A DNA stretch of 64,000 bases, taken from positions 40,283 through 104,282 of the forward strand of contig JAHHIK010000012.1 in NCBI GenBank assembly GCA_019358935.1, read 5' to 3'. Position numbers and translations under genes: made by a program. This DNA is from Tolypothrix carrinoi HA7290-LM1. GTDB lineage: Bacteria; Cyanobacteriota; Cyanobacteriia; Cyanobacteriales; Nostocaceae. Below the pieces are notes generated by a model, which saw only the letters and a program-made list of their open reading frames with translations, was not told the origin of the DNA and made no database searches. Positions 9,274-46,882 of this stretch are shown piece after piece; within the stretch, counting starts at the first letter, position 1, and every line of letters begins with the position of its first letter.

Positions 9274-10179
9274 TCACGTATCATCACGATTTAACTCGCA
9301 TTGTGTCGTCTTCCGCGCCAAGTTGAGAAATGCGCTGATGACTGGTGAGGAATCATGCTGCCGCCAAGCCAGATAAAGTCCGGTTTTAGGTATCTGCTCT
9401 TGTAAGGGTCTGTAAATGACTCCGCTTCTGTGGAAGTTTTGCAAGGAGGCGGGAACGATCGCAATGCCCAGTCCTGCCGCAACTAAGCCGATGATCGTCT
9501 GCATCTGAACTGCCTCTTGAGCCACTTTCGGACGAAATCCAGCTTGTTGACAAATGGTAATAATCTGCTCGTAAAAGACGGGTCCCATTTTGGCAGGAAA
9601 TAGGATAAATAATTCCGAAGCCAATGTGGAGAGCGACACTTGAGTCTGGGCAGACAACGGATGGGTTTCTGGCAACGCCAAGACCAATGATTCTGGCAAA
9701 AGGCACTCCACACTCAAACCTGGTTCGCTGATAGCAGAACGAACAATGCCGATATCAACCTGTTTGTGATGCAGCGCTTGAATCTGTTGAGCAGTCGTCA
9801 GTTCATGCAATCGCAGTTCTACCGCCGGAAACTGTTCTCGAAAGACCCTTACAATCTCTGGTAGTAACGTATACATTGCAGAGTCAACAAAGCCGATCGC
9901 CAACCGTCCAACCTCACCCCGTCCTATCCGTTGTGTCACTGCGATCGCCTGTTCAAGTTGCGCTAACACCAGGTAGGAGCGCTCTAAAAACACTTTGCCT
10001 GCTTCGGTAAGCTGCACGTGTCGCTTCGTTCGTTCAAACAGCTTGACTCCTAGTTCATCTTCCAAACTGCGAATCTGCTGGCTAAGTGGGGGCTGGGAAA
10101 TGCACAACCGCTCTGCTGCTCGACTAAAGTGTAGTTCCTCAGCCACCGCGATGAAATAGTGCAGGTGCCGTAGTTCCAT
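9274..10179 (-). CDS. LysR family transcriptional regulator
   Basis: MELRHLHYFIAVAEELHFSRAAERL..SQPPLSQQI HTH plus substrate-binding domain. Confidence 0.95.
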   Translation of the reverse strand: MELRHLHYFIAVAEELHFSRAAERLCISQPPLSQQIRSLEDELGVKLFERTKRHVQLTEAGKVFLERSYLVLAQLEQAIAVTQRIGRGEVGRLAIGFVDSAMYTLLPEIVRVFREQFPAVELRLHELTTAQQIQALHHKQVDIGIVRSAISEPGLSVECLLPESLVLALPETHPLSAQTQVSLSTLASELFILFPAKMGPVFYEQIITICQQAGFRPKVAQEAVQMQTIIGLVAAGLGIAIVPASLQNFHRSGVIYRPLQEQIPKTGLYLAWRQHDSSPVISAFLNLARKTTQCELNRDDT

Positions 10180-10297
10180 CACACTTATATGTCTAACCTA
10201 TTAATCTTAGTCAAATATATATTGGACAGTCGCATGGCTGTCTTCTACCGTAAGAAATATGAAGCGTGTCTCACCGTATTTGTATTGGAGAAAACAA

Positions 10298-11179
10298 ATG
10301 AACTCAGACAAAAATTGTGTCGCTCCTAAAGTTTGGTTAATTACAGGATGCTCAACAGGATTCGGACGTGCCCTAGCAGAAGCTGTGTTGAAGAAGGGCG
10401 ACGAAGTGCTTGCTACTGCTCGCAAACCAGAGCAACTTCGCGCTTTGATTGAGCACTATCCAGAGACCGCAAAGGCTGTACGTCTAGATGTAACGTTATC
10501 CCAAGACACACAAGCAGCCGTTGATACAGCAATCGCCACATTTGGTCGAATTGATGTGCTGGTCAATAATGCTGGCTATGGACTGATTGGTGCACTCGAA
10601 GAAGTCAGTGATGCTGATATTCGCCAACAGTTTGAAACCAACTTCTTTGGGGCACTCCGTCTGATCCGAACTGTCTTGCCTGTGATGCGTCAGCAAGGCA
10701 GCGGTCACATTGTGAATATGTCATCCACAGCAGGATTAGTGGGATTTGGTGGAAGCAGTATCTACTGTGGCACTAAATTTGCCCTGGAAGGCACATCTGA
10801 AGCCCTGGCTAAGGAGGTTGAATCTCTTGGAATTAAAGTCACTTTAATTGAACCTGGGGCATTTCGCACAGACTTCAACGGACGCTCTCTGGCAGCAGCC
10901 GAACAATCCATTGATGCCTATGTTCCGGTGAGCGGGGCTTCATTGCAGTGGTTCAAAGATATGGATGGTCAGCAACCTGGCAATCCACGATCAGCGGCGC
11001 AAGCCATCGTTCAAGCTGTGGAAAGTCCTCATCCACCGATGCGACTGGTATTAGGCACGGATGCTATGAGCCTGATTCATGAAAAACTGGAATGGATCAA
11101 AACGGATTTGGATGTTTGGCAGCAGGTGACTGTAAGTACGGATTATACAGATAGTAACAGTGAGGTAATAGTTGGGTAG
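10298..11179 (+). CDS. Short-chain dehydrogenase/reductase
   Basis: WLITGCSTGFG, NNAG, YCGTK catalytic motif; GGAG RBS before ATG 10298. Confidence 0.93.
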   Translation: MNSDKNCVAPKVWLITGCSTGFGRALAEAVLKKGDEVLATARKPEQLRALIEHYPETAKAVRLDVTLSQDTQAAVDTAIATFGRIDVLVNNAGYGLIGALEEVSDADIRQQFETNFFGALRLIRTVLPVMRQQGSGHIVNMSSTAGLVGFGGSSIYCGTKFALEGTSEALAKEVESLGIKVTLIEPGAFRTDFNGRSLAAAEQSIDAYVPVSGASLQWFKDMDGQQPGNPRSAAQAIVQAVESPHPPMRLVLGTDAMSLIHEKLEWIKTDLDVWQQVTVSTDYTDSNSEVIVG

Positions 11180-11182
11180 CTA

Positions 11183-11373
11183 ATACCAGTTCTCTTTGAA
11201 GGCGCACAGAATCGTAGGTTGGGGAGCCACTTGCATGGGCGGGTTTCCCGACTTGAGCAAAGTGGCGTTTGAACGGCGTGAAACCCAACGAGTGCTGGAT
11301 TTTGTTGGGTTTCGTTTGACTCAACCCAACCTACAGTTATATGCAAGTCTAAAGAGACTTTCAACTCAACTAG
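11183..11373. repeat. REP/MITE-like palindromic element (GTAGGTTGGG...CCCAACCTAC) containing a nested 45-nt hairpin module
   Basis: Inverted GTAGGTTGGG/CCCAACCTAC and inner GAAACCCAAC/GTTGGGTTTC; module at 11224-11268. Confidence 0.65.
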
Positions 11374-11450
11374 GCGCGATCGCCCCAACGGTTCGGAAGA
11401 TAGATAGAGCCAGTCTACCCTCTACCCTTTAGCCTCTACCCTTTAGGATG

Positions 11451-11604
11451 TTATGCAGAAACTTTCGACCTATCCACCCAAATGAGCGTATTATGCGGAA
11501 AGATTCGGCTTAAACAGCGGCTTTGGAGTATTATACAGAAACTTTCTGTCTATCCGCCCACTGCGGATCTTAGGCGGAAACTTTCTGTCTATCAATTGTT
11601 AGAC
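11451..11604 (+). repeat. Four degenerate ~40-bp-period repeats (TTATGCGGAAACTTT...) ending in GTTAGAC; candidate attI-like site
   Basis: Units start at 11451, 11491, 11531 and 11570; GTTRRRY core at 11598-11604. Confidence 0.5.
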
Positions 11605-11658
11605 AGCTTTAAGTGATCTGTGAGGACATATTTCAAAGTTGTCGTGAGGTTGCAACAA

Positions 11659-12417
11659 TCAGTTTCGTCCTGCGGTTATGCCACCATCGACGGGCAAGAC
11701 AACTCCGGTGATCCAACTGGAACAAGCATCATCAGCTAAAAATAGAATTGCTGCTGTTGTATCCTTGACCTGCCCATTTCGCCCTAACGGATGAAAAGCG
11801 TTGAACGACGCAAGTTGTTCTGGTGTCAGCAAAGGGTCAAATAAAGGGGTTTCAACCACAGCAGGCGCGATCGCATTCACGCGAATCTTGTCGGGTGCAA
11901 ATTCGATTGCCAGGTTACGAGTCAGGGCGTGAACTCCACCCTTCGCTGTTGAAGATCCACTACAGGGCGTTGCGGCGATCGCATGATTTGACCACATCGA
12001 CCCAATATTCACGATCGCGCCACTGCCCCGTTGCCGCATTTGAGCGATCGCAGCCTGGGACATGAAAAAGTAGCCCTTCAGTAAGTTCAAATAACTGTCG
12101 AGGTCTTCTTCAGTGTGATCAAGGAAGGGTTTTGGTTGAAAAACGCCTGCATTGTTGAGCAGCACATCGACACCCCCAAATTGTTCGACGGCTAGATTCA
12201 CGATGCTCTGACTCGTCTGAGGGTGTCCAATGTCACCTGCCACGTAGACAACTCTTTCCTCAGTTGGGTCAATAGCATTAGCTGTTTGCGACAATAAATT
12301 TTCGCGCCGCCCATTGAGCACAATTTTCGCTCCCGCCTTGTAGAAGGCGTGTGCCACATCTGCACCAATGCCACTCCCGCCTCCGGTAACTAATACAACT
12401 TTGTCTCTCAAACTCAT
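11659..12417 (-). CDS. Short-chain dehydrogenase/reductase
   Basis: VLVTGGGSGIG, LLNNAG, IRVNAIAP, VDGG; catalytic Tyr position appears as S (SSTAK). Confidence 0.9.
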   Translation of the reverse strand: MSLRDKVVLVTGGGSGIGADVAHAFYKAGAKIVLNGRRENLLSQTANAIDPTEERVVYVAGDIGHPQTSQSIVNLAVEQFGGVDVLLNNAGVFQPKPFLDHTEEDLDSYLNLLKGYFFMSQAAIAQMRQRGSGAIVNIGSMWSNHAIAATPCSGSSTAKGGVHALTRNLAIEFAPDKIRVNAIAPAVVETPLFDPLLTPEQLASFNAFHPLGRNGQVKDTTAAILFLADDACSSWITGVVLPVDGGITAGRN

Positions 12418-12515
12418 GACCCTCTCCTAAATTGTTTATGCTTTAGCAATCAAGAGCATAGGAGATGGCGCAAATGCCCGCAAGCAGGCACAATTTTGTC
12501 AGGTAGGGTACTTTT

Positions 12516-12878
12516 ATGAAAGAAATGCAGTCGTTCCAAGACCTAAACGTTTCGGAAAACGTGCGGGATGTTGCCGAGGTTGTTGAGGCAGTATTTGGCT
12601 GTAAATGGTCGCTGCGAATTTTAGGGTTGATTCGACGAGGGATCTGTCGCCCTGGTGCGATCGAGCGAGAGTTGACAGGCTTAACCCCTAAAGTTCGGAA
12701 TTACTATTTTCGACGGATGATCAAGTTAGGCATTCTGGAACGAGTAGTGTATCCAGCAGTTCCGCCTCATGTAGAGTACAAACTCACGCATTTTGGGCTA
12801 CGGTTCATGCCGATTTTAGATTCCATTGAAGCGTTACAGCGTGAACTTGAGGTAGACAGTAAGAAGCAAGGTTTGTAG
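12516..12878 (+). CDS. HxlR family winged-helix transcriptional regulator
   Basis: GCKWSLRIL, R.VYP.VPPHVEYKLT.FG. Confidence 0.9.
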   Translation: MKEMQSFQDLNVSENVRDVAEVVEAVFGCKWSLRILGLIRRGICRPGAIERELTGLTPKVRNYYFRRMIKLGILERVVYPAVPPHVEYKLTHFGLRFMPILDSIEALQRELEVDSKKQGL

Positions 12879-12892
12879 GGTGTTTAACCGCT

Positions 12893-12980
12893 GTCGAACA
12901 ACCGTGTTGCAGCGGAACGTACCAGCCTTCTTCGTTGAGTTGCAAAGGCGATCTGCGTCCGCTGAACACGACCGTTAGGC
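12893..12980 (+). mobile_element. Integron attC recombination site
   Basis: GTCGAAC ... CGTGTT(G)CAGCGGA / TCCGCTGAACACG ... GTTAGGC; 88-bp imperfect palindrome with an extrahelical base. Confidence 0.8.
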
Positions 12981-13009
12981 CCTACTGCGTATCCTTCACC
13001 ACACCGCTT

Positions 13010-13393
13010 ATGCCAGATCAACCTGCACTCCTAATCGAACTGCTCCGCGCGGCCTACGCGGCCTTTAACGCGCGAGACATTGACGCTGCCCTTGCCCTCA
13101 TGACTCCGGACGTGGTTTGGCCGAGAGCATTCAAAGGCGGTTTTGTCCGTGGACCTGAAGAAGTCCGCGCTTACTGGACGGAGCAATGGAGCGAGATCAA
13201 CGGGCACGTGGAGCCGGTGACTTTTCACCCGGAGGAGTCCGGACGTATCTTGGTCGAAGTGCATCAGGTCGTGCGCGACCTAGCTGGAGCCGTTCTTGCC
13301 GATGAGCACGTCGGTCATCGTTTCACCATTGCGCAGGGCTTGATTCAAGCCATGGAAGTCTGTCCGCTTCCATCGTCCGGCCACACAGCCTAA
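13010..13393 (+). CDS. NTF2-like/SnoaL-like protein carried on an integron gene cassette
   Basis: YAAFNARDIDAALALM.PDV.W..G.EEVRAYW motif; visibly GC-rich; stop codon lies inside GCCTAAC. Confidence 0.9.
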   Translation: MPDQPALLIELLRAAYAAFNARDIDAALALMTPDVVWPRAFKGGFVRGPEEVRAYWTEQWSEINGHVEPVTFHPEESGRILVEVHQVVRDLAGAVLADEHVGHRFTIAQGLIQAMEVCPLPSSGHTA

Positions 13394-13490
13394 CACGGCG
13401 CTCGAGCGAACGCTTCAGGGCGGCCACCCCGGTTCCGTTCTTCACACCAACAGGCGCCCTGAAGCGTCGCTCAGCTTTGATCCGTTAGCT
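13388..13490 (+). mobile_element. Integron attC recombination site
   Basis: GCCTAAC ... GCT(C)GAGCGA(A)CGCTTCAGGGCG / CGCCCTGAAGCGTCGCTCAGC ... GTTAGCT; two extrahelical bases. Confidence 0.88.
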
Positions 13491-13576
13491 CACGTTAAGA
13501 AGTAACCTCCAGATTTTGATGAACGTCGTAAATCCATTCCAAGCAAGATAGGGGAGCAACCAACGAAACGCCATTT

Positions 13577-14090
13577 TTGACGCATGCCATCAGTATTAAT
13601 TTAGAAGCACCAACATGGCTGGCTCAAGCTGCCTTTCCGATTATGAAGCGACAAAACTACGGACGGATTGTGCTTACGACTTCAGATAGAGCTATTTATC
13701 AGCAATATGCACTCAGTGGTCTCGCCCCTTATGCTATGGGAAAAATGGCACAGATAGGTCTGATGAATGTGCTCGCGGTTGAAGGCAAAGAGCATGGAAT
13801 TCTCGTTAATGCGATTTCGCCGGTAGCCAAAACGCGGATGTGGAACGTACACTCCAAAGCCAGAGGATTTGCGACCCGATCAAGTAGCCCCTGGAGTGTT
13901 ATACCTCGCTTCTTTTGAATGCCGAGAGTCTGGATTTATATTAAGGGCAAGCAATGGTCAATTCACAGCCGCGCGCTGGATCGAGCGAAACAACGTGGAC
14001 TATCCGTTAAACCTTGCCGCTGTTGAAAGTTCTACTGCGGAGGATTTGGCTACTCGCTGGCAGGAAATTGCTGCGGATGTTGCGTTTTAA
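13577..14090 (+). pseudogene. Truncated, frameshifted SDR oxidoreductase fragment
   Basis: YGRIVLTTS, YAMGK, ILVNAISP; no N-terminal Rossmann motif; frame change near 13855. Confidence 0.75.
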
Positions 14091-14280
14091 GGACTAGGCT
14101 TGTACTTCGAGATGGTCTGTAGGGAAATCGAGATTATTGGTGGGAGAGTAGTTGAAAGAATGTGGGTAAGGGGCGATCGCTTTTCTCCCCAACGCCTTCG
14201 GTGAATGAGAGCAATTGCGAAATCTAGAATCATTGTTGATAAATGATTTATTTCATCAAATCGGGATGAGCCTCAAATAA

Positions 14281-14967
14281 ATGAGTGATTCTACTGAATA
14301 TCTTTTAGACTCTTTTCCCGTGCCAATGTGTGATAATATCCGGATATTCAATGTAAAATTAATCAAGTCAGAAGAGTACAGAGGTTAGATTGCATCGAAA
14401 AAACGCTATTTTTACGGGGTTCGAGTTCAGTTATTAACGATTAAAAGTGGTGTCCCAGTTGAGTTTGTCTTCATGCCTGGTAGCGCTGCTGATGTGCGGG
14501 CATTAAATGCGTTACCGTTAAATCTGCCACCAGGTAGTGAAATTTATACTGACTCCGCATACACTGATTATACTTCGGAAGATGACCTGAGAAAGACGAG
14601 TCAAATTGAGTTGAAAGTGATGCGTAAAAAGAACTCTAAGCGTAAAGATGAGCCGTGGAATCAATACATTAAACAATCTACTCGGCATTACCCAATCGAC
14701 TGTGTTCAGCGCGATTACTTGTGTTTTCCCTAAATCGATTCATGCAGTCACATATAGAGGGTTTTTACTGAAACTCGAAGCATTTATTTTTGCCTTTACT
14801 CTTCAACAAGCATTTAGAGAATGAGTTAAATATAATACTTGAATTTGATTCAAGACTTGCACTTTTGATTGAGTCAAAGTCGCGGAGTCGCGGCGGCGCT
14901 ACCGCCTACTTGTCGTGCGGTAACGCTCAAAGTAGTACACTTGTATTTAATAACCTGCAACTTGGGT
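14281..14967 (+). mobile_element. IS982-family transposase remnant (5' truncated, internal stop and frameshift)
   Basis: YLLDSFPVPMCDNIRI..YRG*IASKKRYFYG..IYTDSAYTDY; terminal GCAACTTGGGT resembles an IS982 right end. Confidence 0.8.
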
Positions 14968-15019
14968 TAGTAAGGGATAGAGCCGCTTAAAACCTTTATA
15001 TTTGAGCGGTAAACCGCTC

Positions 15020-15398
15020 ACCCTTCTCTATGAGACCAAGGCGAACGGGTTAGCCAGTCGCTCATGGGGAGCCAGTGCGTTGGGGAGGACACCTGCGTGG
15101 GCGGGTTTCCCGACTTGAGCAGTGTGTCCGTTGAGGCAGTGCGGTCTTGGGGTTTCACGCCACTCCCCTCAAGTCGGGAAACCCTTCCTGTGGGGGTGGC
15201 TCCCCAAGTGGAGGAGGCAGTGCGGTCTTGGGAGCAAATCGCCACTTGCGCGTCTGCCGGGAAACCCGTCCAACGCAGTGGCTCCCCAAGTGAAGCACCT
15301 GCCGTCATCTGCCGTCGGCTCTGCCGACTTGTTCGCGCAGCGTCTCCGCATCTGAGAAGCACCTGGCGTGGAGACCCCCTGTTCTGCGCGCTGGCTCA
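15020..15398. repeat. Composite of nested ~45-nt and ~24-nt hairpin repeat modules
   Basis: Multiple GCCAG/C...GGGAAACCC...C/GTGGCTC modules in both orientations. Confidence 0.8.
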
Positions 15399-15467
15399 CT
15401 ACGAACTAAGAAATTATTTTACGTTTAATTTCGCCTACTTCCTTATTGACTCCTAACTTCTAACTAA

Positions 15468-15674
15468 TCAAAATACCTCATTTTCAATACCGCGCCACCA
15501 TTCCCCCAAATTCATCAAATCTTCGTGTATGTCTGCTAATTCACCGGCGTAGTCATTTTCTGAAAGCGTCGCTTGACGTTCTTTGAGCTTTTTCAGTCGC
15601 AGTTGCACCAACAGCCAAGGTTTAGTGATGCTATTCGTGGCTTCGATGTATTCCGCTAGTTCTTTGCTATTCAT
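15468..15674 (-). CDS. Small hypothetical protein (68 aa)
   Basis: Clean ORF with upstream AAGG; helical composition; KPWLLVQLRL..DLMNLGEWW. Confidence 0.65.
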   Translation of the reverse strand: MNSKELAEYIEATNSITKPWLLVQLRLKKLKERQATLSENDYAGELADIHEDLMNLGEWWRGIENEVF

Positions 15675-15748
15675 AAATTTTGATTTTTATTGCACTACCT
15701 TTTAAGATACAAGTTATGTAGCAATCCGTTTATAATTCGTGAAAAACA

Positions 15749-15781
15749 AGATACCCGACTTCTTTAAGAAGTCGGGTATCT
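15749..15781. repeat. Palindromic repeat AGATACCCGACTTCTTTAAGAAGTCGGGTATCT (degenerate copy at about 16763-16796); may terminate sodB
   Basis: Perfect hairpin; related copy on the other side of sodB. Confidence 0.7.
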
Positions 15782-15849
15782 GAGCCGGAAAAACAGCCAC
15801 GAAAGAAAAATGTTTTCCGCGTTACAGTGCTGACAAAAAAAGCAGATAA

Positions 15850-16452
15850 TTAAGCCTTAGCTAAATTTTGTGCAACAAAATCCCAGTTTACCAACTGATC
15901 TAAGAAGTTCTTGATAAAGGCAGGACGAGCATTGCGGAAGTCAATGTAGTAAGCATGTTCCCAAACGTCTAGAGTTAGGAGTGCTTTCTGACCATGAGCT
16001 AGAGGGTTCTCTGCATTCGGTGTTTTCGTCACCTTCAGCGTACCATTATCATCAATCAACCAAGCCCATCCGCTGCCAAACTGCGTTGTAGCCGCGTTAG
16101 AAAACTCTTCTTTGAATTTATCAAAGCTACCAAAATCTTTGTCAATTTTAGCAGCTAAATCACCGCTTGGTGTACCGCCGCCTGCTGGCTTCAAAGAATT
16201 CCAAAAGAAAGTATGATTCCAAACTTGAGCCGCGTTGTTGAAAACTCCTGTTAAAGAGGGGTCTTTAAAAGAAATTTTGATCACCTCTTCTAGAGGTTTA
16301 TCTGCGAGGTCTTTACCTTCAACGAGCTTGTTAAGGTTATCTACATAAGCTTTATGATGCTTGCCATAGTGATACTCGAAAGTCTCAGCTTTCATGCCAT
16401 ATGGCTCTAAAGCGTTAAAGTCAAAGGGTAGGGGGTCTTGTGTAAATGCCAT
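15850..16452 (-). CDS. sodB: Fe superoxide dismutase
   Basis: HYGKHH, FNNAAQVWNH (Fe-type AAQ), FGSGWAW, DVWEHAYY. Confidence 0.96.
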   Translation of the reverse strand: MAFTQDPLPFDFNALEPYGMKAETFEYHYGKHHKAYVDNLNKLVEGKDLADKPLEEVIKISFKDPSLTGVFNNAAQVWNHTFFWNSLKPAGGGTPSGDLAAKIDKDFGSFDKFKEEFSNAATTQFGSGWAWLIDDNGTLKVTKTPNAENPLAHGQKALLTLDVWEHAYYIDFRNARPAFIKNFLDQLVNWDFVAQNLAKA

Positions 16453-16863
16453 GAGTGTGAAATCCTCTCTTTACCGTTTTCCAGTTTAAAGCTAATGCTA
16501 CAGCTTTGGAAATTACAGGTTTTGTGTTGAGCAATTGAAGATGCTGAACACTGTAAAATAAAACTTTACATTGTTATTTTACTACCAAAGGCAGGATTCA
16601 GACAAAGTGGTTTTGTCACAATTGAGGTCAAATCTACCTAAATGAATACACAATAAGTAAGAGATTATGCCGATTATGTCTCGATAGATATATTTTGTAA
16701 TCAAGTAATTTTAATATAAAATGATCATCTATAGCAATCCGCTCATAAGAGCGTAAACAACAAGATTCCCGACTTATTAAAGAAGTCACCGAATCTGAAT
16801 CAATGGATTTTTACAAAGTAATAACTCTAAAAGATAATTATTTTTTCATAAGTCTAATTTTAA

Positions 16864-45709: not shown

Positions 45710-45768
45710 GTGTTTTCAGAAAAAAATAGCGAAGTGTTTATCGCGGTTCTCGTTTAAGTCAAATACAA

Positions 45769-45847
45769 ACCTAACTCTCTACCCCCTTCCCTACAAGGGA
45801 AGGGGAAAAAGCCCCTCTCCTTGTAGGAGAGGGGTTGGGGAGAGGTT
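45769..45847. repeat. REP/BIME-like double-hairpin repeat
   Basis: CCCCTTCCCT-ACA-AGGGAAGGGG and CCCCTCTCCT-TGT-AGGAGAGGGG. Confidence 0.75.
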
Positions 45848-45939
45848 TTTAAACGAGAGCGTGCGTATCAGTCCTGATGTACTGCAAGCCTTTGCTAGCT
45901 ATAGTTAACGGTTAAGGCTCACAGTTAAAAGGAGGCAAG

Positions 45940-46604: not shown

Positions 46605-46882
46605 AGCTCGTAGTAAGCGCTGAAGCGCTTATTTTAAGCACTTTAGTGCTTACTACGAGTTCCGAACACCAACTTTCGAGTTTGGAACATCAACTTTCGA
46701 GTTCAGAACTCGAACTTTCGAGTTTGGAACATCAACTTTCGAGTTCAGAACATCAACTTTCGAGTTTGGAACATCAACTTTCGAGTTCAGAACATCAACT
46801 TTCGAGTTCCAAGCTCGAAGTTTCGAGTTCCAAGCTCGAAGTTTCGAGTTCTGAACTCGAAATTCCGAGTTCCGAACACGAA
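46605..46882. repeat. REP-like palindrome followed by a 21-bp tandem array built on TTCGAGT
   Basis: CTCGTAGTAAGCGC...GTGCTTACTACGAG, then about 10 units like GAACATCAACTTTCGAGTTTG/CA. Confidence 0.85.

Follow-up and report, generated by a model that had tools for sequence, protein, structure and literature searches.

The DNA between positions 11450 and 13490 of the window, by which we mean the entire stretch of 64,000 nucleotides analysed here, is best understood as an integron platform without an integrase, consisting of an attI-like site and, behind it, two cassettes bounded by attC sites, the insertion of which was likely the work of an integron integrase (IntI) that has since been lost. 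We assign this reading a probability of about 0.88; because no integrase is present, the recombination events themselves are something that we infer. An initial annotation had described the segment 12893-13490 as an array of gene cassettes without an integrase. The two attC sites on which that description was built are real, but the array was incomplete, as the attI-like site and a whole upstream cassette of 1376 bp had been overlooked.

The core consensus of attC sites is RYYYAAC for the R'' box and GTTRRRY for the R' box, and the first bulged base is usually a G. attC1 (12893-12980, plus strand), an imperfect palindrome of 88 nt situated 15 nt past the stop codon of an HxlR gene, closes cassette 1 with R'' GTCGAAC and R' GTTAGGC; attC2 (13388-13490, plus strand, 103 nt) has R'' GCCTAAC, overlapping the stop codon of a SnoaL gene, and R' GTTAGCT. 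The fourth base of R'' in attC1 is off the consensus and its first bulged base is a C rather than a G, while R' of attC2 does not fit the strict GTTRRRY. Both sites were evaluated with a family-specific covariance model (R1) built from 19 IntI-adjacent attC sites of seven relatives, with the window left out of the seeds; these seeds had been collected up to 20 kb beside the relatives' intI genes by a script that looks for hairpins bounded by R'' and R' and oriented away from intI, as is canonical. When the whole 64-kb window was scanned with the filters off, R1 returned attC1 with 71.3 bits (E 3e-17) and attC2 with 26.2 bits (E 1e-4); each site lies on the plus strand and has the coordinates given in the initial annotation, which had proposed the two sites together with their R''/R' cores and extrahelical bases. 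The third-best match is the reverse strand of attC1 (E 0.043), and all remaining matches have E values of 0.29 or above. In the R1 alignment, the bulges of both sites fall on the bulge positions of the model. Within the seed alignment, 91.5% of the cells in the R-box and L-box helices are paired and 14 of 21 pairs exhibit compensatory changes, values that none of 500 shuffles attained and that contrast with 29-39% pairing in slid controls; these covariation counts are inflated because the hairpin script had chosen the seeds beforehand and the seeds in turn supplied the structure.

When folded as single-stranded DNA, attC2 differs significantly from its shuffled versions (z -4.0 for the bottom and -5.1 for the top strand), whereas attC1 by itself does not (z -1.6 and -2.1); for the latter site, fold energy as a sole criterion was dropped. 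On the L'' arm of the bottom-strand folds, attC1 carries an extrahelical T and C, whereas the extrahelical bases of attC2 are T and G. Inverted R''/R' cores, an imperfect L''/L' stem with bulges and a fit to R1 are found at both positions. Copies of attC1 with 86-91% identity occur in seven other genomes of the family. The different donors that the initial annotation proposed for attC1 and attC2 are conjectural. Ghaly et al. 2021 (PMC8352920) present a Cyanobacteria-specific attC covariance model, which shows that the chromosomal attC sites of this phylum can be recognised as a type of their own. A lineage type of this sort includes attC1; attC2 fits the cyanobacterial R1 model weakly (26 bits).

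One might object that these hairpins are repeats or terminators of a kind ordinary in cyanobacteria and that the GC-rich gene between them belongs to an unrelated, horizontally acquired island, so that there would be no integron at all. The window does contain other hairpins and repeat families, the folding energy of attC1 is unremarkable, and no Rfam family was matched in the region 10500-16500. This proposal is nevertheless scarcely credible in the face of a model trained on IntI-adjacent sites that scores both attC sites, of G/TT boundaries (the slash marks the crossover) that are exact in many genomes, of 33 out of 33 attC matches on the strand of the associated gene, and of relatives that possess IntI genes with like attC sites.

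The second cassette (12975-13484, plus strand, 510 bp), the boundaries of which are set by homology in five relatives, corresponds to a typical gene cassette in that it holds one open reading frame (ORF) in the orientation of the array, followed by attC2. The ORF (13010-13393, plus strand, 127 amino acids) matches the SnoaL_2 family (PF12680; 47.7 bits, cut-off 27, E 2.5e-12), an NTF2-like family, and its TAA stop codon (13391-13393) lies inside GCCTAAC, in agreement with what had been noted before. NCBIfam gave no match for the protein. The GC content of the cassette, described earlier as GC-rich, is indeed 0.598 compared with 0.429 for the window. It had also been called free of HIP1, and it contains no such site; however, this is no sign of foreign origin since, at 69 HIP1 sites per 64 kb, only 0.55 sites would be expected in 510 bp, which renders their absence uninformative. 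No consensus promoter was recognised upstream of the ORF by what is a weak test. The reasoning that the unit had once been a circular cassette is borne out by the core sequences: in the excised form, R' (G + TTAGGC) and R'' (GCCTAAC) of attC2 are complementary at 7/7 positions, as opposed to 5/7 in the integrated form, and a direct reading of the attC1 sequence yields 6/7 for its circular form.

An alignment of 25 homologs of the SnoaL protein has a mean column identity of 85% and 52 invariant columns. Its AlphaFold model (pLDDT 91) exhibits the alpha+beta cone of NTF2-like proteins; TerC is the closest structure in the PDB (TM 0.78, 26-27% identity) and is also returned, as a weak match (E 0.0077), by a PDB sequence search. 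Further structural neighbours (TM 0.74-0.78) are NTF2-like proteins of unknown function, putative polyketide cyclases and ketosteroid isomerases. We predict that the SnoaL gene encodes a protein of NTF2 fold that binds a small molecule or acts on one as an enzyme.

The segment 12973-13599 recurs in 8 of 40 relatives, with 84-95% identity and in other contexts. In an alignment of six genomes (A1), homology of the cassette begins exactly at GTTAGGC or GTTAAGC while the upstream DNA is unrelated in all six; the upstream sequences of at least G005 and G023 score as attC sites with R1, and in G023 the homology ends at the GTTAGC of attC2. At eight other loci, the SnoaL cassette sits directly on the same attI-like site as the usual first cassette. 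Judged from these alignments, the SnoaL cassette is a mobile unit, found elsewhere as the same unit behind unrelated attC sites or behind attI.

Species-representative genomes contain about 370 stretches related to the SnoaL gene, and the best 80 of these encode proteins with 81-97% identity to the cassette product. Seventy-four of these 80, one titled 'uncultured bacterium' included, are cyanobacterial by record title and come from many orders; the other six are labelled as metagenome-assembled genomes (MAGs) of Verrucomicrobiota (three), Burkholderiales or a beta-proteobacterium (two) and Armatimonas (one). Around the best 80 loci, R1 finds 33 attC sites in 24 loci, every one on the strand of the gene; the start of nine of these sites coincides with the stop codon, and eight stop about 30-50 nt short of the ATG. 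R1 matches are present at four of the six non-cyanobacterial loci as well. A simple script for downstream attC sites retrieved 11 of the 80 loci, a number that is of no use as a count, its rules being too strict. The median GC content of the SnoaL ORFs is 0.567 as opposed to 0.457 in their flanks. In a quick protein tree, most forks of which are unresolved, the Nostoc rows are scattered over several places, and so are the six non-cyanobacterial ones. On the evidence of these sequences, the SnoaL gene is horizontally mobile and appears to be present across phyla, with errors in MAG binning being a possible contribution. The cross-phylum capture put forward by the initial annotation is supported in part only, and not for this genome: six of the best 80 relatives carry non-cyanobacterial labels, but 74 are cyanobacterial and the cassette is the usual first cassette at eight loci; in the present lineage, it is probably a resident and not a fresh capture. 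The locus points to a very widely spread and very conserved NTF2-like cassette. As side observations, the SnoaL gene is followed by attC sites of differing types (89 nt at L131, 124 nt at L110, 103 nt in the window), and many loci titled Nostoc carry the junction AATAAATT followed by ATTAG, a change of GTT to ATT, as though the cassette had become fixed in place.

Ahead of both cassettes lies the attI-like site (11450-11604, plus strand), which comprises four direct repeats (11450-11476, 11490-11514, 11530-11556 and 11570-11597) with the core TTAT(A/G)C(A/G)GAAA..TTC and terminates in CTATCAATT followed by GTTAGAC, the crossover G being at 11598. Four relatives with intact intI genes (G098, G050, G042 and G140) carry at least five such repeats directly after the intI start codon, and the attI-like site shares 77 invariant alignment columns with these intI-proximal arrays. 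In G098, G050 and G042, the last repeat ends in GGAAACTTTCCGTATAATAAATA and its GTTAGCC abuts the first cassette, while the GTT of the last repeat has decayed in G140. The DNA before the first repeat in the window is unrelated to that of the relatives, at the very place where intI would begin. Because the array aligns with arrays that abut intI, and unrelated DNA occupies the intI position, we read 11450-11604 as a putative attI site from which intI was deleted up to the first repeat, a role assigned by homology and junctions. The attI-like site is present in 25 of 389 family genomes, the window's own included, and most matches stop at query positions 179-181 of 183 (window positions 11600-11602). 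A compilation of junctions from 13 sources shows CTATCAATT followed by GTT in 12 of them, with L085 not matching the pattern; eight sources continue after this GTT with the SnoaL cassette, and the window, G005, G103 and G214 each continue with a different sequence. At least five different cassettes are joined at the same G/TT. Homology, junctions and an empty joint, described below, together mark this site as one at the head of an array at which cassettes are joined at G/TT.

In class 1 integrons, attI1 consists of the direct repeats DR1 and DR2 and a core site. The attI-like site resembles attI1 in having several direct repeats, putatively of the integrase-binding type, that precede a GTTRRRY crossover, the point of entry for new cassettes; it differs in its unrelated sequence and in the number of repeats (four here and at least five in intact relatives).

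An integrase acting in trans might instead have placed the cassettes at a non-classical genomic site, an attG-like site, and thereby generated a CALIN at a secondary location without any entry through attI. Such a route has been published (bioRxiv 10.1101/2022.09.11.507474), and it would suit a genome that contains no intI gene and at least six further attC matches scattered over other contigs. We regard it as very improbable for this locus, since the upstream site is no bare short motif but an array of four repeats with homology to the arrays next to intI in four relatives; it shares their terminal junction of AAT(A/T) and GTT, which is used by at least five different cassettes. The cassettes, therefore, do not occupy a non-att genomic site of the SALIN or attG kind, the upstream site being a homolog of attI.

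The initial annotation had found no intI gene in the 64 kb, and this stands. A tblastn search of the window with the IntI proteins of five relatives gave no match, and the integron integrase model TIGR02249 reaches at best 53.8 bits, against a cut-off of 265, over the window's own genome (99.65% complete, in 184 contigs, between which an intI gene might still lie in a gap); a score of 53.8 bits is at the level of ordinary tyrosine recombinases and is matched in all 14 control genomes too. Neither search thus recovered the intI gene that a complete integron would have. TIGR02249 exceeds 265 bits in 11 of 151 family genomes, with seven integrases being full-length without stops and a top score of 480.8 bits, as opposed to none of the 14 control genomes; integrons are hence native to the family. 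In the relatives, attC sites adjoin the IntI genes in the canonical divergent orientation. No IntI gene was detected within 1.5 kb of the attI-like site at 11 other loci (L076-L086), at L045, L047 and L075, or in the window, and none of five genomes bearing the attI-like site has an IntI above the cut-off. One complete integron among the relatives (L036; G022:C14:50000-69999) consists of an intI gene above the cut-off followed by at least ten very GC-rich attC sites of 126-134 nt on the strand opposite intI. At L023 and L025, a gene of the LysR family is found no further than about 1.3 kb from the intact intI gene; the platform in the window is also near a LysR gene (9274-10182), the product of which is 24-28% identical to the LysR proteins of these two loci.

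Cassette 1 (11599-12974, plus strand, 1376 bp) contains SDR252 (11659-12417, minus strand; Pfam adh_short_C2, 4.7e-51), the HxlR gene (12516-12878, plus strand; Pfam HxlR, 3.8e-14) and attC1. The two genes are divergent with an intergenic region of their own, an arrangement that is atypical for a cassette, yet the unit is exactly bounded. Its GC content of 0.49 and three HIP1 sites, all within the SDR gene, suggest DNA of a cyanobacterial type. In public contigs it is absent to the base: contigs from each of four public runs (three soil metatranscriptomes from two studies and one biocrust DNA run, the contigs being from other organisms) carry an empty joint that connects 11597 with 12974 and leaves out exactly 1376 nt, its position being ambiguous by 5 nt (GTTAG), and the contigs of those runs provide no coverage of 11673-12946. 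This joint is a form in which attI is joined directly to the SnoaL cassette. From the RNA-library contigs that span attI and SnoaL, expression is not claimed, as they stem from other organisms and could reflect carry-over of DNA. The whole stretch was found in one public run only, which may be its source; small word shares of it occur in soil, rock, air and biocrust runs, and no habitat is named from them. In G005, a member of the same genus as the window, collinearity of the backbone extends to 11602; about 470 bp containing a different attC site come next, and the SnoaL cassette follows.

It is possible, if rather unlikely, that the integron remnant is real but that cassette 1 came by homologous recombination from a relative carrying attI, cassette 1 and SnoaL, with the flanks serving as arms and with no integrase action in this lineage. 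A genome without IntI is compatible with such an exchange, flanks that are 93-99% identical among genera would provide ample homology, and the block of attI, SnoaL, the 82-bp segment behind attC2 and the truncated SDR gene behind that is common to several genera. However, no donor is seen, as the body of cassette 1 has no close match in any of the 388 other family genomes searched (the attC1 part alone matches), and the ultimate insertion would still need IntI because the junctions are exact at G/TT.

Directly behind attC2 lies a segment of 82 bp (13485-13566, plus strand) that is conserved in relatives; at 96-99%, it is found behind attC2 in six other places (loci of G005, G167, G096, G066 and G022, and L098, several of them duplicate loci), while G127 (L080) and L097 retain its first 34 nt alone. 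This conservation suggests that the attC2-side block is old or was moved as a whole, and the segment may be what is left of another cassette or of the target into which the array first went. It is followed by dSDR285 (13567-14090, plus strand), which corresponds to the 3' two-thirds of a native SDR of 285 amino acids and is truncated at its 5' end and frameshifted, being split into two ORFs in different frames; the full-length homolog is present in G021 (L030, 17757-18614). R1 gave no match with E below 8.7 behind dSDR285 in the window. The suggestion that this decayed SDR gene might be a third cassette is contradicted by these data, because it is a truncated native gene that no attC site follows. 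For G006, G007 and G040, the DNA homologous to the window extends no further upstream than 13567 or 13586. Comparison of these loci makes LysR-SDR306-SDR285 the likely ancestral backbone, in which the integron remnant replaces the first third of SDR285. Beyond it, a repeated element (14229-14885), whose ORFs have no Pfam match, has copies with 74-84% identity in the window's own genome (C78) and in many relatives, and is because of these copies probably a remnant of an insertion sequence.

In the integrons that have been studied, cassettes enter through recombination of attI with a folded bottom-strand attC site. Under the preferred reading of the locus as an integron remnant, an ancestral integron of intI, attI and cassettes would have been situated between SDR306 and SDR285, and would later have lost intI. 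The SnoaL cassette would be the old resident and cassette 1 the newest arrival, inserted at attI by recombination with the folded bottom strand of attC1, by analogy with the integrons just mentioned. Since there is no integrase gene, the cassettes are likely frozen; they would now be immobile unless an integrase arrived in trans or the block were swapped by homologous recombination. The SnoaL gene, if it is expressed at all, might depend on read-through from HxlR or on a promoter in attI. A more far-reaching scenario would have an orphan attI platform, deprived of its integrase, kept at one chromosomal locus across several filamentous cyanobacterial genera, with its first cassette turned over by integrases visiting in trans and with the resident SnoaL cassette being cosmopolitan. 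We consider it speculative and improbable. The SnoaL protein is at least 81% identical across the best 80 of about 370 relatives, which come from numerous orders of cyanobacteria and from MAGs assigned to three further phyla. If true, the scenario would imply a cassette pool common to several phyla, for which orphan attI sites would be permanently available points of entry.

Cury et al. 2016 (PMC4889954) define the integron, the In0 element and the CALIN, the last by two or more attC sites that are separated by under 4 kb and have no intI gene nearby, and they report integrons in Cyanobacteria; among the origins they propose for CALINs are loss of intI and rearrangement. The comparison with a CALIN drawn by the initial annotation is apt, in that the two attC sites are 408 bp apart and no intI gene lies nearby or in the genome. 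The locus is unlike a CALIN in retaining an attI-like site before the array, and its attC sites were called with a family-specific model. Because this site is retained, the locus is better described as an integron minus intI than as a bare cluster of attC sites. Like the sedentary chromosomal integrons of, for example, Xanthomonas (bioRxiv 10.1101/2025.06.18.660453), it occupies a fixed chromosomal locus common to related genomes, with the integrase inactivated or lost and a cassette content that varies between strains; unlike them, it has a very short array of two cassettes, an intI gene deleted wholly up to the first attI repeat, and a cyanobacterial host. A review (PMC8618304) lists Cyanobacteria among the integron-bearing phyla. 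Integrons and CALINs in Cyanobacteria are thus already published, and the locus adds one more example that leaves the general picture of integrons unchanged. A search of full texts retrieved no paper on a cyanobacterial attI site or on this SnoaL cassette. Integrons are best known for the spread of antibiotic resistance, and environmental chromosomal ones, those of Cyanobacteria included, are little studied. With its attI site, a pair of cassettes whose limits are exact, an empty form that is documented and intact integrases of cognate type in relatives, the locus makes integron recombination directly testable in cyanobacteria.

Several minor observations concern the surroundings of the platform and the remainder of the genome. 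Between SDR306 and the attI-like site lies a short repeat (11213-11346) with dozens of copies in many related genomes (72-98% identity). A metatranscriptome contig (run X19, record 1), which may be a chimeric assembly, contains the segment 13484-13553, then 84 other letters, and then the attI-like sequence 11435-11597, so that the segment following attC2 is placed before an attI site. A GC-rich patch (15000-15400; GC 0.61-0.65) with short repeats has pieces at many loci of the window's own genome and of relatives. Elsewhere in the window, the hairpin script picked out a strong hairpin of 88 nt (45764-45851) and an array of 21-nt repeat units that begins with TTGGAACATCAACTTTCGAGTTCAGAAC and is in part inverted (46661-46875). 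Six further R1 matches of 38-78 bits are found on other contigs of the window's own genome, at C43:13383-13469, C96:2864-2951, C90:18120-18206, C9:26366-26446, C59:36292-36379 and C6:71995-72081; the one on C96 forms, with another attC site on the same strand (L057, 630-742), a second CALIN.
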